Positions 40,988-47,877 of a DNA stretch of 64,000 nucleotides are shown piece after piece. The notes under the pieces are model-generated. The model worked only from the letters and a program-made list of their open reading frames with translations. It did not search any database and was not told the origin of the DNA. The DNA is from Candidatus Eiseniibacteriota bacterium. GTDB taxonomy: Bacteria > Eisenbacteria > RBG-16-71-46 > CAIMUX01 > VGJL01. The stretch is from NCBI GenBank assembly GCA_963792585.1, contig CAWBWI010000005.1:64001-128000 (forward strand). The letters are read 5' to 3'. Made by a program: the position numbers and the translations under genes. Within the stretch, counting starts at the first letter, position 1; every line of letters begins with the position of its first letter.

Positions 40988-42931
40988 CTACCTCAAGACT
41001 CGCACGGAGAAAGAGCCCTCCCAGATCGTTCTCGGATCGCTCTCGCCGTCGTCCCGGCGGAGCGCGTCGAGGCGCAGGATCGGCTCGAGAGCGGCGAGGC
41101 CCTCCCATCGCAGGTCGGCGGAGACGCCGCGGGTGGTGAGATCGGGCACGGCGCCCGGGCGATCCACCGTGGAGAAGATCCCGTGCGCTCCCGCGACGAG
41201 GTCCCGCATCGGACGCGCGGAGAGCGAAACGCTCGCGAGCCGGTCACGAATGCGCCCCTCCGCCCAGGTGATCGCCTCGACCTCGCGAACCGCGCGATAG
41301 AAGAACGTCAATCCGCAGCGCTCCCGCGTGCCGCCCGCGCGCTCCAGCCTTCGCACGCCGGCCCAGAAGCGCCACCCTTCCCGGTTCTCTTCATAGGTCA
41401 GGGCCCCGTAGGTGGGCGCGAAGTGGTTCTCCGTGCGCAGGCGGTGCGCTTCCCCCCAGAAAACTTCCCGGCCCAGCGGCTCCTCGCAGAGCAGTCCTGC
41501 GCGGTAACCGATGGCGTCTCGGGCCGGTTGCTTCCGGCTCGCGCGATCGCGGCGCCAATCGACGTACTCCGCATCTGCGGTGAGCCCCCTCCAAGGTCCC
41601 GCGCGGCCGAGCAGAAACCACCCCCGCTCGTCCGTTGGGGCCGGACGGACGTAGCCGCCCTCCCCGATGCTCCTTTGATCGTCGCCGATCGTGAGGTATC
41701 CCGCACGCAGGCCGAGCGGGGTCGGGAGTTCGAAGCGCGGATCGAGCGCGCCGGGGGCGCCGAGGTCGATCGATACGCCGCCCAGGGTCCGCCGGAATCG
41801 GGCCTTCTGCGTCTCGCCCGGTCCCGCGGTCGTCAGGATCCTCCTCTCCCAATGCGGGACCGCCACGAAGCCGCGCAGGCGAGCGAATCGGCGGGACCAA
41901 GCGGCGGTCGCCCCCTCGAACGTGTAGGCTGGGCCGAGGACTTCGAGGCTGTACTGCTGCAATCCGGCTCCACCGCCGCCGCCACACCCGCATCCGGACG
42001 CGCCCCCGAGCGGGGGCGCATCGTCGGCGTCCCACCGCTGCAGAAGCAGCGGAGAGAGGCGCAGAGGATAGGCGCCCAGGATCCCGGAGAAGCGTCCGAT
42101 GCGCACGTTCAGGCTCGCCGTGCCGTGCGGGCTCGCAAGTTGCTCGGCCCCCTCCGTCAGGACCGCATCCGTCTCATTGCTGACCCGGAGCCAGGGAACG
42201 AATTCGATGCCGCGGGCAAGGGGCCAGGTCATGCGCAGGTCGAAACGGGTCAGCAGGGCTGCGCCGTTTTCGAGCGTCTCGCCGTTGAGACCGATCTCCC
42301 CCGCCCGCGCGCCTTCCGTGCTGAGGAATCGAATCCGGCCATCGATCGAGAGATCCGGCCATGCAGGGATCGCCGACGACGACGGTCCGGCCGAAGCGAT
42401 CGCGGCGGGACGGCCGAGCGCGTCGATCGCCGCGGGCATGACCGGCTCGATCAGATTCGGGATCTGATCGTCGAAGAGGGACCGGATCTTCCCCGCGCGA
42501 TCGATGACGAAGACGCCGAGGTGGCGAATCCCGAGATCATAGTCGGCGGCCGTGCCGGCCGTCGCGTCCCACAGATGCGGCACGGGAACCTCTCGGTCCC
42601 AGAGCAGATCCTTCAGCGCCTGCGGATCGTCGGGGCCGAACAGAATCCCCACGACCTGTCCACCGCGGGGCGCGAGCGAGTCGGCCAGCTCGTTCATCCC
42701 GAGCGCGACCTGCGTGCAGCGCGGGCAGCCGCGATTCCAGATCACGAGGACGGTCGCGTCGCTCTGCGCGTAGATCGCCGACGAGGCGGCGGAGCCGTCG
42801 CCCTGCAGCCACGGCAGGTCGAAGGCGGGCGCCGGATCCCCGGGCGCGAGCGCGAACGCAGAACCGGCGGTTATACACAGAATGAGAATGATCAAGAAGG
42901 GCTGCCTCAAGGGAAATGCTGCGTGGCTCAC
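40988..42931 (-). CDS. Secreted redoxin (CxxC) fused to a probable beta-barrel domain with a GCGCG motif
   Basis: Signal peptide; 'GDPAPAFDL...WNRGCPRC...FVIDRAGKIR' AhpC/TlpA fold; then amphipathic beta strands; GGAGG RBS before GTG 42931. Confidence 0.7.
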   Translation of the reverse strand: MSHAAFPLRQPFLIILILCITAGSAFALAPGDPAPAFDLPWLQGDGSAASSAIYAQSDATVLVIWNRGCPRCTQVALGMNELADSLAPRGGQVVGILFGPDDPQALKDLLWDREVPVPHLWDATAGTAADYDLGIRHLGVFVIDRAGKIRSLFDDQIPNLIEPVMPAAIDALGRPAAIASAGPSSSAIPAWPDLSIDGRIRFLSTEGARAGEIGLNGETLENGAALLTRFDLRMTWPLARGIEFVPWLRVSNETDAVLTEGAEQLASPHGTASLNVRIGRFSGILGAYPLRLSPLLLQRWDADDAPPLGGASGCGCGGGGGAGLQQYSLEVLGPAYTFEGATAAWSRRFARLRGFVAVPHWERRILTTAGPGETQKARFRRTLGGVSIDLGAPGALDPRFELPTPLGLRAGYLTIGDDQRSIGEGGYVRPAPTDERGWFLLGRAGPWRGLTADAEYVDWRRDRASRKQPARDAIGYRAGLLCEEPLGREVFWGEAHRLRTENHFAPTYGALTYEENREGWRFWAGVRRLERAGGTRERCGLTFFYRAVREVEAITWAEGRIRDRLASVSLSARPMRDLVAGAHGIFSTVDRPGAVPDLTTRGVSADLRWEGLAALEPILRLDALRRDDGESDPRTIWEGSFSVRVLR

Positions 42932-43076
42932 GGTCACCTCCCGCTCCGGAATAGCACTCCGTCGGCGGCGCCGCAAGCGGCCTCCGCGATCGCCGCGGCG
43001 AGCCGTCTTTCTCTGGAGAGAGGCGCCTTGTTGGCTCCGCGGCGTGGTGGTACGATCTTCGCCGGAGGACAGACTT

Positions 43077-43646
43077 ATGAGCCGCTTTCCTTCCTTCCCG
43101 GTTGCGTCCGCCGCCCTCCTTCTCCTCGTCGCCGTCGCACTTGGAACGACCGTCCGCGCGGAGGACATGCGCCTCGCCTCGGATGACGTGTTCACATGGG
43201 GCGATCTCGGCGGCATCACGATTCAGCATGCCAACTGCGAGGGAGCGCTCGATGGTCGTGCGATCGACGGTCTCGACCTGCCCGGAGAGTGGATCCAGTG
43301 GCATCTGACCCTTACCGAGCCGTTCTGCTTCGTCGACTCCCTTCACTCCGCCGGCACGACAGACGTCGTGCGTGAGTTCGTCACCGAGTACATCTCCGAT
43401 CCCTTGTGGGAGACAGCGGGGCAGGACACGGTCTTCACGGCTCCAGGGGCCGGGGTTGGCTGATCGAGCGGAAACTACGACTGGGTCCAGTCGTCCGAGA
43501 TCCATTGCCTTCCCGCCGGAACCTACGTCATCAAGTTGACCATGTTGACATCACTGCGAACGAAGATCGACTGCCTCGATCTTTCGGGTCGCGTGATTGC
43601 GGTGATGCCGACGACCTGGGGAAGGATCCGCTTCCTGTACCGATAG
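43077..43646 (+). CDS. Secreted CBM6-like protein, probable selenoprotein (in-frame UGA at 43461 = residue 129) with a TTWG C-terminal tail
   Basis: GGAGGA RBS and signal peptide. Readthrough adds SSGNYDWVQSSEIHCLPAGTYVIKLTMLTSLRTKIDCLDLSGRVIAVMPTTWGRIRFLYR*, and a SECIS-like hairpin follows the UGA. Confidence 0.75.
43461..43500 (+). promoter_or_regulatory. Putative bacterial SECIS element
   Basis: UGA-N13-ACGACUG[GGUC]CAGUCGU perfect hairpin plus a lower CGG/CCG stem; apical GGUC as in the E. coli fdhF SECIS. Confidence 0.7.
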
Positions 43647-43649
43647 CGC

Positions 43650-45398
43650 CTATTCGAAGACCAGGTAGCCGAACTGCTTGGGCTCGAAGCCGATCGGGTA
43701 CTGCCAATCGGCCGAGCTTTGCTTCGAGATTTCCTTGCGCCGGAAATTGACCCGCCAGCTCGTCCCGGGCGTCGGCGGCACGAATCCGAGTTCAGCAAAG
43801 GGGATGACCGCTTCGATCGTCCAGCCCTCGGCTTCTCTCCCGGCAATGACGGTATAGGCGCCGTTCCACTTCGGCCCATCCCCCTCGTACTGTTCCGGCC
43901 CCGTGACCGTGAGCTTCTGATCGAAGATCGTCCCGTTGGGGTTCACGTAGATCTGGCAGAACGTCTTCTGCTCCGGATCGCCGCTCAGGAAGTAGCCGAC
44001 ACAGTCATCTCGGGTGACCGCCTGGTCGCGTTCGACGGCTTTGGCCGTCAGGCTGGCCCCGTCCGTTTGCACGCAGCGGGCGGCGAGGTAGAGATTCGCG
44101 GCGTCATATCCGAAGAAGAAGGTCGTCGGTTCGATGACGTCCGTTCCCCCGTCGGGCGAGCAGAAGAACTCGGCCTTGCCAGCGTGGGTCCAAAGATCCT
44201 CCTCGAGCGAACCGTCGATCACGGGCCCCGCGTCGAATCGGACCACCTGCTGGACACGACATGCGGGGAGGGCGGCGTCGAAGTGGAACGTCCGTCCCTC
44301 GCGATATGGGTAGTCGAAGCGGAGATGGGGCAAAGGATAGAACCGCCCGTTTCGAGCGACCTGGAACGGGATCTCCACTCCGTCGCCCGGGGGGAGGTCG
44401 ATCGCTCGTGTGGCCGGGTCGATCGACCACTGGGTCGATCCGTCCCACCTCAGATCGGCGCGCAGCGGCGCGGAGGTTGCGTTCCGGAGTCTGAGCGTTC
44501 CGACTGCCGTCGCGGCGCCCGTCCCTTCCCGAACGAGGAACGGCTCGATCCGCGCGTACTCGCTCTCCACCCTCTCGAAGAACTTCAGGTCGGAAACGCG
44601 CGTGGCGTCCGCGGGGCGCACGGAACCCTTCTTCAGCACGCCCCAGTCGAGTCTTCCGTCGCGCGCCGTACAGAGGAGGTACCCGTAGAAGGCGCCCCGC
44701 TCCTCGTTCTCATCCACGTACCCGCCGCTCGTTCCGACGATGGTGTAGGAAATGCCGTCGTAAACGCTCGTCCCGTAGAGGTGGAAGTGGCCGTTGAAGA
44801 CGGCGTCGACACCGTACTTGCGGAACAAGTCATGGAGGGGATCGGGCTTCTCCTCGGCGAGGGTGGCGTACCAGAACGGTTTGTGGAAGATCGCAATGGT
44901 CAACGCGTCGTTCGCGTGGGTCGCTAGGTCCGCCTCGAGCCAGGTGCGGTGGCCTTCGGCCGCCAGCCAGTCCTCGCTCGTCTCCCAGCGTCCGGTGTCG
45001 AGGATCACGAAGTGGATCCCCTCGCGATCTAAGGCATAGTTCGGCTCGTGCCCGGTGCGCTTTCTCCACTCGGATTCCATCGTGGGGTTGAGGATGTCGT
45101 GATTCCCTGGGGAGACGAAGAGAGGTTCGTGAAGGTCCTTGACGATGCCGTCGAATTCGTCCCACTGGGACTCGAGGGTCGGGACGTCCTCGGTGTATCC
45201 CTCGATGTGATCACCAACGGTGACGATGAAGTCGGGCGCGAGCGCGTCGACCTCCGCGACGATCGCTTCGTAGACGCCGGTTACATGACTGCCGGTCCGA
45301 TCGCCGATGATTGCGAAGCGGACAGCGGCCGCGGAGGCGTGTCCGGCGGCGATACTCAGGAGCAGAGCGATGGACAGCGAGGCGCGCTGCGATTTCAT
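43650..45398 (-). CDS. Secreted metallophosphoesterase with C-terminal CBM9-like domain
   Basis: GDRTG, VGDH, PGNHD, FHKP, GHFH; C-terminal 'IDGSLEE..W...YDAANLY...WTIEAVIPF'. Confidence 0.88.
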   Translation of the reverse strand: MKSQRASLSIALLLSIAAGHASAAAVRFAIIGDRTGSHVTGVYEAIVAEVDALAPDFIVTVGDHIEGYTEDVPTLESQWDEFDGIVKDLHEPLFVSPGNHDILNPTMESEWRKRTGHEPNYALDREGIHFVILDTGRWETSEDWLAAEGHRTWLEADLATHANDALTIAIFHKPFWYATLAEEKPDPLHDLFRKYGVDAVFNGHFHLYGTSVYDGISYTIVGTSGGYVDENEERGAFYGYLLCTARDGRLDWGVLKKGSVRPADATRVSDLKFFERVESEYARIEPFLVREGTGAATAVGTLRLRNATSAPLRADLRWDGSTQWSIDPATRAIDLPPGDGVEIPFQVARNGRFYPLPHLRFDYPYREGRTFHFDAALPACRVQQVVRFDAGPVIDGSLEEDLWTHAGKAEFFCSPDGGTDVIEPTTFFFGYDAANLYLAARCVQTDGASLTAKAVERDQAVTRDDCVGYFLSGDPEQKTFCQIYVNPNGTIFDQKLTVTGPEQYEGDGPKWNGAYTVIAGREAEGWTIEAVIPFAELGFVPPTPGTSWRVNFRRKEISKQSSADWQYPIGFEPKQFGYLVFE

Positions 45399-45576: not shown

Positions 45577-46714
45577 CTAGCGGAAGTCCGCTTTGATCCG
45601 CCCCCAGGTCGTGCTCTCGGTCGGGAATCCGAAACATGGGTTCACGGGCTCGCAGGTCGAACCGTCCCCCATGTAGGTGCCGTCGTGGTCCGCACAGGCA
45701 TCGGCGGTCAGAGTTTCACAGTGGCCGTCCATGTCGAGACAGCAGGCGCCCGCCGGGGGGCACACCGTGTCAACGCAACTCGTATTGAATCCTTGGAAAA
45801 CTCCGGAGCAGTCCCAATCATGCACCTCAGTGCAGGTGCCGTCGTCCAGGCAGCAGGCGCCCTCGGGGATCGGCCCGCAGGGATTCGGATCGCAAGTGAT
45901 GCCGGGGCCGTAGGGCACGCCCCCGATCCGAACGCACTCCTCCACCTGCAGCATCTGACAAGTCCCGTCCGGGAGGCAGCAAGCTTCCGGCTGCGGGCAG
46001 GGGTTGGGATCGCAGGGCACACCGTCTCCGAGGTAGATACCCTGACACTCGATCCATGGGTGTGTAGATGCAGGATCCGTCCAGGAAGCAGCACGCGCCG
46101 GAGTGCGGTTGGTCGGGAATGCAGTCCATCTCCCCCGGAACGTTCCAGCGCATCGCGGCGAAGTTGAAGCAGAGATCCTCGATCGGCGGGCTGCCGTCGT
46201 CGACGAACTTCGCCTCGTTGGTGCTCGGATAGGTCCGCGTGCCGAAGTAATAGGTGTCGTCATCGTGCCACACGGCGAACCAGTAGAAGGGGAACGCATG
46301 GTCGTAAACCGGAACTCCGTAAGCAACGAGGTTCCCGCAGTCATTCAGCTCCGGCCAGCCCGTGTCGGGCAACTCGAGCAGCTGCGGCCCGCACGCGGAG
46401 TAACCGTCGATATACCCCTGAGTCGGCGGCAGGTTGTGGTGGATTCCAAACTGGAGCGCCGTCACGGCGGGGCTCGAGGAGGCCACGAACGCGGCCATCA
46501 ACCAGACGACCGTAGCCTCGTCCGGCGTCTTGTGGCTCGTGTTGACGAAGTCCTCGCACCGACCGGGCGTCGCGCTCTGGCAGTAATCGGCGGTCGCGGT
46601 GTAGACGATCGAGTCGTCGGTGTGGACCAGCATCATGCCGTTGACGTTGCGGCCGGCCCAGGACGGGCTCGCGATCAGCATCGCCACCGCCAGAAGGAGT
46701 GGCGGCCGTTTCAT
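45577..46714 (-). CDS. Secreted Cys-rich 'GACC' repeat protein with TTWG tail (paralog B; frameshift near 46062)
   Basis: N-part MKRPPLLLAVAML...GACCFLDGSCIY lies in one frame and C-part WIECQG...TTWGRIKADFR in another. The junction is in a CA dinucleotide run. Confidence 0.8.
45631..45894. repeat. 264-bp direct repeat, copy 1
   Basis: Matches 46777-47040 with 3 mismatches by manual comparison. Confidence 0.9.
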
Positions 46715-46722
46715 GGTCCCTC

Positions 46723-47877
46723 CTAACGGAACCGGGCCCGGATCTGGCCCCAGGTCGTCTTCTCGGTCGGGAAACCGAAACATGGGTTCACGGGCTCGCA
46801 GGTCGAACCGTCCCCCATGTAGGTGCCGTCGTGGTCCGCGCAGGCATCGGCGGTCAGAGTTTCACAGTGGCCGTCCATGTCGAGACAGCAGGCGCCCGCC
46901 GGGGGGCACACCGTGTCAACGCAACTCGTATTGAATCCTTGGAAAACTCCGGAGCAGTCCCAATCATGCACCTCAATGCAGGTGCCGTCGTCCAGGCAGC
47001 AGGCGCCCTCGGGGGTCGGCCCGCAGGGATTCGGATCGCAGGGCATATCCGGAAGGAACACGCCGCCGAGCGCGTCGCAATCCTCCGCAAAGAGGATCTG
47101 GCAGTTCCCGTCGGGGAAGCAGCACGCACCCGGTTGCGGGCAGGGATTCGGATCGCACGGCGTCAACTCGCCATACCAGACGCCCCCCATCGCTTCGCAA
47201 TCAACCGGGAACGCGACTTCCAGGCAACTCCCGCCGGGGAGACAACATGCGCCGGGAGGATGGTCTCCGGGACAGGCATTCTCTCCCGGCACTCCCCACC
47301 GCACCGTCCCGAAGTTGTAGCAGAAGTCCTCGAGGGGCGGGCCCCCGTCATCCACGAACTTCGCCTCGTTCGTGCTCGGGTAGGTCCGCGTGCCGAAGAA
47401 GGTGGACTCATCCCCGTGGTAGACGGCGAACCAGTAGAATTTGAACAGGTGTTCGTAGACGGCCGCGCTATAGGCCACGAGATTGCCGCAGTCGCTCGGG
47501 TCGGGCCAGCCCGAGTCGGGCAGCTCGATCGAGCTCGGACCGCACGCTCCCCACACGACGAAGTAGCCCTCATTCGTCGGGAGATTGTGCCGGATTCCGA
47601 ACTGGAGCGCCGTGACGCCCGGGCTAGACTCCGGGGGAAAAGCCGCCACCAGCCAGAGGATCGTCGGTTCATCGATCGTGTCGTTGCTCTGTGTCTCGAG
47701 TTCCAGACAGGATCCCGGGAGAGCGAACTCGGGATCGGTGCAGAAGTTGTACGTATCGGTGTAATCGAGTTGTCCGGTGTAGACGTGCACGACCATCGAC
47801 CCATTGGCGTTTCGGCCGGCGTTCGCGGCGCCGTTCACCGCAACAAGCGCCACCAACAACAATAGCAGATATCGCAT
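46723..47877 (-). CDS. Secreted Cys-rich 'GACC' repeat protein with TTWG tail (paralog A)
   Basis: Signal peptide, four 'GACC...C...C...CDPNPC'-type repeats, end TTWGQIRARFR; GAGGAGG RBS. Confidence 0.88.
   Translation of the reverse strand: MRYLLLLLVALVAVNGAANAGRNANGSMVVHVYTGQLDYTDTYNFCTDPEFALPGSCLELETQSNDTIDEPTILWLVAAFPPESSPGVTALQFGIRHNLPTNEGYFVVWGACGPSSIELPDSGWPDPSDCGNLVAYSAAVYEHLFKFYWFAVYHGDESTFFGTRTYPSTNEAKFVDDGGPPLEDFCYNFGTVRWGVPGENACPGDHPPGACCLPGGSCLEVAFPVDCEAMGGVWYGELTPCDPNPCPQPGACCFPDGNCQILFAEDCDALGGVFLPDMPCDPNPCGPTPEGACCLDDGTCIEVHDWDCSGVFQGFNTSCVDTVCPPAGACCLDMDGHCETLTADACADHDGTYMGDGSTCEPVNPCFGFPTEKTTWGQIRARFR
46777..47040. repeat. 264-bp direct repeat, copy 2
   Basis: Near-identical to 45631-45894 (offset 1146 bp). 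Confidence 0.9.

Follow-up and report, generated by a model that had tools for sequence, protein, structure and literature searches.

The gene at positions 43077-43646 of the window very likely belongs to a real, new family of selenoproteins with a fold not so far catalogued for selenocysteine (Sec), a predicted jelly-roll of the carbohydrate-binding-module type. Its in-frame UGA at codon 129 is almost certainly decoded as Sec by SelB-dependent insertion. The window is the whole stretch of DNA analyzed, 64,000 nucleotides from a Candidatus Eiseniibacteriota bacterium. The preliminary description of the locus had proposed Sec at residue 129, and comparison of sequences strongly supports this assignment through the pattern of TGA and Cys codons among homologs, a hairpin behind the UGA and the Sec machinery of the source genome. 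Beyond that description, the analysis adds a divergently oriented partner gene encoding a redoxin-barrel fusion, and the loss of the sugar-binding residues from the jelly-roll. The partner is conserved and is itself an undescribed gene. The features of the selenoprotein gene are as follows.

43077..43646, plus strand: read-through gene of 189 aa, predicted selenoprotein (sequence and family comparison)
43064..43069, plus strand: ribosome-binding site GGAGGA (sequence)
43077..43160, plus strand: likely signal peptide, residues 1-28, with hydrophobic core and VRA cleavage motif (by eye)
43164..43586, plus strand: predicted CBM6/35/36-type beta-sandwich, residues 30-170 (AF2, structure match, hhalign 98%)
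43236..43238, plus strand: Cys54, putative Sec partner (Cys in 150/167 rows covering the column)
43326..43328, plus strand: Cys84, putative structural disulfide with Cys144 (covariation, 39 full-length rows)
43461..43463, plus strand: in-frame TGA, codon 129, putative selenocysteine (comparative evidence)
43477..43494, plus strand: SECIS upper stem-loop ACGACTG-GGTC-CAGTCGT, beginning 13 nt past the TGA, with the loop starting 20 nt past the UGA
43506..43508, plus strand: Cys144 (covariation with Cys84)
43611..43643, plus strand: C-terminal tail TTWGRIRFLYR, lineage-wide motif, putative secretion/sorting signal

Past the TGA at 43461-43463 the frame stays open for 60 further codons up to the TAG at 43644-43646, four bases short of the end of a convergent gene at 43650, which bears out the read-through coordinates proposed earlier. 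Sixty open codons alone are weak evidence, as 39% of the 1152 long TGA-ending ORFs of the GC-rich source genome read on for at least 60 codons. The folding energy of the hairpin (-10 to -15 kcal/mol) is not significant on its own either (z -1.3; 23/200 shuffles equally good), and a loose hairpin filter was passed by 76 of 2562 coding-like TGAs of this genome. Since these local features are singly weak, the case is decided by comparative evidence.

On a different contig, the source genome (5.4 Mb, 84% complete) encodes a paralog of 38% identity (E 5e-31) that has TGA at the equivalent codon and repeats the 19-nt hairpin without a change. Among 206 genomes of the phylum (Ca. Eisenbacteria), the gene was found in 21, with 26 matches in all, and a profile search of the phylum genomes recovered the same gene set. 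One TGA occupies the aligned site in 23 of the 26 matches, a form spread over 19 genomes; two matches carry TGC (Cys), and in the remaining one (L030, genome G048) an in-frame deletion fuses the N-terminal half to the TWG tail and the Sec region is gone. A database profile built on 25 copies matched 355 cluster representatives at E ≤ 0.001. The best 150 of these 355 comprise 121 entries that end at the residue before the site (known as protein sequences alone), 16 full-length family members, all 16 with Cys at the site, 4 unrelated multidomain proteins and 9 that are partial, shifted or unrelated. Counting the two genome loci and the 16 database proteins, the non-TGA homologs carry Cys in 18/18 cases and never Trp. 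The comparison of homologs at position 129, which had been proposed as a check, thus yielded TGA or Cys, with no Trp or other residue among the non-TGA homologs.

The database clusters of the family that were looked up are named 'hypothetical protein' only. Truncation by gene callers, as predicted in the preliminary description, has indeed occurred: the database entry for the gene is a 128-aa product ending at the TGA (P0002). At least 121 public protein clusters are cut at this codon and lack one third of the fold as well as the sorting tail, which makes the annotation systematically wrong. One subgroup (P0088, P0103, P0128), which carries Ig repeats, has GSGCC as its last residues ahead of the presumed UGA, and this implies the motif CCU.

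The extension matches the upstream part in conservation, with an amino acid identity of 0.37 downstream of the hairpin vs 0.35 upstream (21 rows; the near-duplicate, one divergent row and the Cys forms were left out), and conservation had been a further point raised for it. Downstream of the UGA, the second codon position was better conserved than the third in a coding comparison of 21 rows. In a tree built by quick search on 98 columns, from which 10 rows had been left out as short or partial, the Cys forms were scattered, with 13 changes and weak support, and the tree is too weak for ordering the Sec and Cys states. No related loci were returned by a locus search with the single protein in genome contigs, nor by a metagenome locus search with a narrow alignment whose sole pattern assumed Cys at the UGA. 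Among assembled contigs, an independent one spanning the site lists, in the rows shown, no change at the TGA. The passage of an RNA-library contig through the UGA does not by itself prove transcription.

The earlier proposal to look for the sel genes was followed up in the source genome, where selA (E 7e-146), selB (E 2e-95), selD and tRNA-Sec were all found; selD carries an in-frame TGA of its own in the motif CAG-U-AAK. Of the 19 UGA-carrying genomes, 17 have selA; in the remaining two, which are 75% and 54% complete, tRNA-Sec was found together with selB or selD. As selA occurs in 182 of the 206 phylum genomes, co-occurrence with the Sec machinery is necessary, not discriminating. A genome-wide reassignment of UGA was rejected, because TGA is the commonest stop of the source genome (1152/2143 long ORFs). 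Besides a normal copy, ARAGORN reported an unusually long, 97-nt tRNA-Trp(CCA) in this genome (G000:C3:225222-225318).

The hairpin claim held, with a qualification: ACGACTG-GGTC-CAGTCGT is present 13 nt past the TGA as described, and the lower CGG/CCG stem that had been included is not conserved among homologs. With its 4-nt GGUC loop, 7-bp stem and 20-nt spacing, the element fits the bacterial SECIS consensus as set out in section 5 of PMC13188914, and it is frozen at synonymous sites across the family (TAC 18/18, GAC 21/21, GTC 17/18, CAG 21/21), while equally conserved residues outside the hairpin vary in codon (Asp165 11/20, Asp87 12/19, Val63 6/14). Stem cells were paired in 93% of cases in 22 UGA copies vs 16-48% in slid controls. 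Four double changes were seen in the stem, and the covariation was matched by 2/500 shuffles; the compensatory pairs come from three sequences in two related genomes and are probably one event. In L031, a divergent UGA copy, the hairpin differs, and at both Cys-form genome loci the stem is broken. The spacing of 20 nt from UGA to loop is common to SelD, an AhpD-like and four Omp28-like candidates of the source genome. When the UGA-plus-hairpin pattern was searched for in all species genomes, a set overlapping the phylum set, 15 of the 17 loci obtained lay in the family; metagenomes gave 21 loci, of which 19 share the reading frame of the family and 2 do not.

Several other Sec candidates were noted in the source genome. 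Near selD lies a second likely uncatalogued exported selenoprotein (G000:C6:198322-199341, plus strand; L135:6523-7542) with a signal peptide, a GGCG-U motif and a beta-rich, barrel-like body that matches no Pfam or NCBIfam model; it occurs in 9/206 genomes, with one in-frame TGA in 5 of 12 matches. Four genes encode Omp28-like exported UxxC selenoproteins (G000:C6:966000-973000 and 898800-901200; L136, L137). They score far under the NF045500 cut-off, the intact ones end in FlgD/T9SS-type tails, and this family is expanded in 35/35 genomes of the order, mostly with TGA. TGA-plus-hairpin candidates at G000:C1:1449638, C3:1036040, C3:1081711 and C4:299833 comprise an AhpD/CMD-like CxxU protein, a MerB-like protein, a TlpA-like UxxC lipoprotein and, as judged by eye, a rhodanese-like CSU motif. 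Upstream of an ArsR-type regulator (G000:C6:570851, minus strand; L138), a small hydrophobic peptide ends in PKLGVPT-TGA followed by a hairpin and is possibly a C-terminal Sec peptide.

Judging from its sequence, the selenoprotein is very probably exported, and its tail would place it at the surface or outside the cell. As noted before, the extension ends in TTWGRIRFLYR, and two neighboring proteins end in TTWGRIKADFR and TTWGQIRARFR. In the source genome 112 such TWG tails were counted; by a crude test, an N-terminal hydrophobic stretch is present in 72 of the 94 tail ORFs that were scored and in 603 of 2094 others. The query protein bears this short tail and gave no match to TIGR04183/PF18962 or a FlgD_ig C-terminal domain. 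Across 25 aligned genome copies, 19 have the TWG tail, 3 a FlgD/T9SS-type domain, 2 neither, and 1 is cut; the homologs L021 (E 2e-7) and P0009 have a T9SS-type C-terminal domain. This exchange of the TWG tail for a T9SS-type domain inside one family hints at an undescribed short secretion signal. Eight PorV-family genes scored over the cut-off in the source genome, and SprA was found in pieces only, each below the cut-off. In several longer family members, a lipoprotein-like signal is accompanied by repeats of the FN3, Ig or Cys-rich type. Cys-rich secreted proteins with GACC...CDPNPC repeats and a TWG tail are also encoded at 45577-47877 of the window (minus strand) and genome-wide. The gene at 45577-46783 is frameshifted, and the 384-aa Cys-rich TWG-tail neighbor matched no Pfam or NCBIfam model.

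An AF2 model of residues 30-170, calculated with Cys in place of Sec, reached a pLDDT of 94.7 and matches CBM6/35/36 folds (Foldseek E 2e-7). Its structural alignment to 2cdp gave a Z of 16.7 and an rmsd of 2.0 over 126 aligned residues, and hhalign aligned the profile to CBM6 domains at 98% probability. The model agrees with the earlier suggestion that the extension completes a CBM6/35-like jelly-roll; in its terms, the UGA-truncated product would be without the last four sandwich strands. A sequence search of solved structures gave weak CBM6 matches only (best E 0.006), and PF03422 (CBM6) had no match in the query and one in 25 members (E 0.013). Searching a protein atlas with a natural Cys homolog returned clusters without a name at 0.89-0.90, ahead of CBM6/35 clusters at 0.82-0.83; these are leads only.

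The text of PMC10284105 gives Tyr34, Trp92 and Asn120 as residues of CBM6 cleft A. These positions were mapped through 1uxz by profile alignment. The Tyr33/34 position is Gly in 158/166 rows, the Trp92 loop has an insertion of ~5 residues bearing Sec or Cys (register uncertain by 1-2 residues), and the Asn120/121 position is Arg or Lys in 34/40. With its Tyr, Trp and Asn replaced, the family has the predicted CBM6 fold and is not a member of CBM6; the sugar-stacking cleft is predicted to have given way to a site formed by Cys54, Sec129 and a basic residue. The family otherwise keeps the EAE motif and C-terminal Asp (150/157, 147/159, 40/40); the query copy has lost part of the EAE motif, with Ala34/Asp36 in place of Glu/Glu. 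We take EAE and the C-terminal Asx to be structural calcium ligands of CBM6.

Of 39 full-length rows, 26 contain both Cys84 and Cys144 and 13 contain neither; no row has just one of them. This perfect covariation indicates that the two pair together, presumably as a structural disulfide, and leaves Cys54 for Sec. Cys54 aligns two residues past the cleft-A Glu20, and both Cys54 and Sec129 map to the cleft-A end of the fold. Two full-length UGA members without Cys54, both from one clade, carry U-x-C instead. A lone Cys at the position of Cys54 is also found in the ordinary CBM6 domains 8zvk and 5fui, so that its conservation may predate Sec. On these patterns, Cys54 and Sec129 probably act as a redox pair.

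Upstream of the selenoprotein gene, on the opposite strand, the partner gene has the following features.

40988..42931, minus strand: divergent partner gene encoding a signal peptide, a TlpA/ResA-like redoxin and a predicted outer-membrane beta-barrel of ~20 strands
42716..42727, minus strand: redoxin CxxC (CPRC), in 56/61 homologs, some of which are N-terminally cut
41984..41992, minus strand: barrel-loop dithiol CGC in the loop following strand 5; C-x(1,2)-C in 60/61 homologs

The N-domain of the partner scored over the cut-offs of PF00578 (57 bits) and PF08534 (47 bits) and aligned with DsbE 3gl3 (Z 19.4, rmsd 2.0, 141 aligned); the barrel region matched no Pfam family. The AF2 model (pLDDT 91) comprises a thioredoxin fold and about 20 beta-strands, with the C-domain predicted to form a closed antiparallel beta-barrel whose best matches are OprD/Occ, AlgE and MOMP (OccD2, 3sy9, an OprD-type porin: Z 17.9, rmsd 3.8, 302 aligned); these matches do not place it in any one porin family. 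The dithiol loop is long and poorly ordered (pLDDT < 50 at model residues 284-296), and by strand alternation in the model it is the third outer loop. In porins, the third outer loop often folds into the pore.

With close barrel orthologs defined at E < 1e-60, 15 of the 206 phylum genomes have both genes, 6 the selenoprotein gene only, 1 the close barrel only and 184 neither. The two are adjacent in 9 of the 15 genomes having both (5 families) and on 3 metagenome contigs; all 12 adjacent pairs are divergent and spaced by 100-400 bp. Within the 35-genome order, 11 genomes have both genes, 1 and 1 have a single one and 22 have neither, these being kin and not independent cases. No 9-mer was common to at least five of the 12 intergenic regions. 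Complex prediction for the natural Cys-form pair of one genome (barrel and jelly-roll) scored 0.00 with an uncertain partner fold, which is evidence neither way. That the selenoprotein is served by the barrel is a tentative proposal, which we rate somewhat short of even. The Omp28-like selenoproteins were considered as specific clients of the barrel and are disfavored, because they are found throughout the order (35/35 genomes) and are absent from the four outside genomes having both genes. As further observations, a distant redoxin-barrel paralog family (L117-L130) is present in 21 more genomes, several copies standing beside a thioredoxin gene, and the copies aligned keep the CxxC and the loop CxC/CxxC; three close orthologs adjoin a PEP-CTERM-like protein.

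Our best reading, toward which we lean by a little, is that of an exported jelly-roll selenoprotein acting as an extracytoplasmic redox module through the Cys54-Sec129 pair. SelB would read the GGUC hairpin and Sec would be inserted at the UGA. The signal peptide would deliver the selenoprotein to the periplasm, where the Cys84-Cys144 disulfide would form, and the TWG tail would then send it by a type IX-like route to the cell surface or into the medium. There, the former sugar cleft, with Gly for Tyr33/34, Sec in the Trp92 loop and Arg/Lys for Asn, would enable Cys54 and Sec129 to alternate between the selenylsulfide and the selenol/thiol state and to reduce or capture a substrate from outside, be it a disulfide, a peroxide or a thiophilic metal. 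In the least certain step, the periplasmic CxxC of the partner would reduce the CxC in the flexible barrel loop, and this CxC would in turn pass electrons over the outer membrane to regenerate the reduced selenoprotein. A full thiol electron conduit over this membrane, from thioredoxin domain via a swinging barrel Cys pair to a secreted selenoenzyme, is a doubtful extension of this reading, as is its evolutionary corollary that the selenoenzyme arose from a sugar-binding module by replacement of sugar-stacking residues with Cys and Sec. If true, the system would be an outer-membrane counterpart of DsbD with the selenoprotein as terminal reductase.

Any account without Sec, whether it takes the UGA for a genuine stop, for an assembly error or for a codon of Trp or some other amino acid, appears extremely improbable. 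The assembly is frameshifted elsewhere and the loop in question holds Trp92 in CBM6, which would be in its favor; set against these are the TGA kept in 19 genomes, the rank of TGA as the commonest stop of the genome, the invariable Cys of the non-TGA homologs and the incomplete sandwich of the truncated product. If Sec is present, Cys54 and Sec129 might instead serve as soft ligands that scavenge Hg, Cu or As and hand them off to the barrel, whose CxC loop would line an uptake or detoxification channel and be kept reduced by the fused redoxin. A soft metal or an oxyanion would seem to fit a pocket of Cys, Sec and Arg, the match to OccD2 likens the barrel to porins for small solutes, and many predicted bacterial selenoproteins are linked to metal binding in the sections of PMC13188914 drawn on here. 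No recurrent metal-resistance or transport gene was seen among the neighbors inspected (1.5-3 kb flanks), however, and the fused thioredoxin-fold CxxC suggests thiol-disulfide exchange first; we regard both parts of the metal proposal as unlikely.

We give still less credence to the idea that Sec serves purely as a structural Se-S staple, be it for an adhesin at the surface or for a module that binds glycans, and likewise to the redoxin-barrel as a disulfide isomerase for the many cysteine-rich secreted proteins of the lineage. The retained calcium-type EAE and Asp residues, the fusions to FN3, Ig and Cys-rich repeats and the scattering of Cys forms over the weakly supported tree are all compatible with a staple. 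Both cleft-A aromatics are lost, however, and the barrel follows the selenoprotein gene rather than the order-wide Omp28-like exported proteins. To our knowledge, it would be unusual for most members to retain a costly UGA-SECIS for a purely structural bond.

Most characterized selenoproteins have thioredoxin-like folds or metal cofactors. In the jelly-roll family, Sec would sit on the scaffold of a carbohydrate-binding module, at the loop whose usual task is stacking against sugar; this location suggests that a binding site was converted for redox or metal use. The thioredoxin-porin fusion is a testable candidate for keeping thiols and selenols of the Gram-negative surface reduced without cytochromes, and the small size or modular build of the selenoprotein and the partner domains should allow them to be tested in a heterologous host.

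The preliminary description had likened the protein to no known selenoprotein family, and this impression stands. In Pfam and NCBIfam (June 2026), the query matched no family and 31 members gave two unrelated matches only (E 0.075 and 0.098); none of the 119 families in Table 1 of the 2026 catalogue PMC13188914 is named with a CBM fold. The main texts of PMC13326102 and PMC12013277 do not mention 'Eisenbacteria', 'CBM' or 'carbohydrate'. Literature searches on Eisenbacteria with selenoprotein or selenocysteine found no paper, and the listings of further searches showed nothing on the selenoprotein family, the TWG tail or a redoxin-porin fusion. Unvalidated groundwater selenoprotein candidates, reportedly described by Deng et al. 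in 2026, could include the jelly-roll family.

With CBM6, CBM35 and CBM36 (2cdp, 1uxz, 1uxx, 5fui), the family shares the predicted jelly-roll, the calcium-type EAE/Asp residues in most members and a GDW/GEW strand. It differs from CBM6 in falling below Pfam detection, in its Gly at Tyr33/34, Sec/Cys-bearing Trp92-loop insertion and Arg/Lys floor, and in having no catalytic glycoside domain among the members seen. Extracytoplasmic Sec, a 3' SECIS and Cys homologs are also features of the Omp28-related NF045500 proteins, ExtKL, the GSU2204 beta-barrel, the TonB-dependent FCYXU receptor and SaoB/SaoX. These catalogued exported selenoproteins have other folds, whereas here Sec and its putative Cys partner lie 75 residues apart, with no CxxU or UxxC motif and no NCBIfam match. 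Gly-x-Gly right before Sec recurs in the GxGU selenoproteins (HgcB GVGU, UXX-star family 2, hypothetical protein DG), whose sequences are unrelated and whose NCBIfam models give no match here. The partner resembles TlpA/ResA/DsbE in the thioredoxin fold and WxxxCxxC motif of its N-domain, and OprD/AlgE-type porins in its porin-like barrel; unlike either group, it combines both in one chain and adds a conserved dithiol loop. In the inner-membrane thiol relays DsbD/CcdA and the Mtr-type porin-cytochrome conduits, reducing power is moved through a membrane by shuttling groups, whereas the relay proposed here would span the outer membrane and use cysteines rather than hemes.
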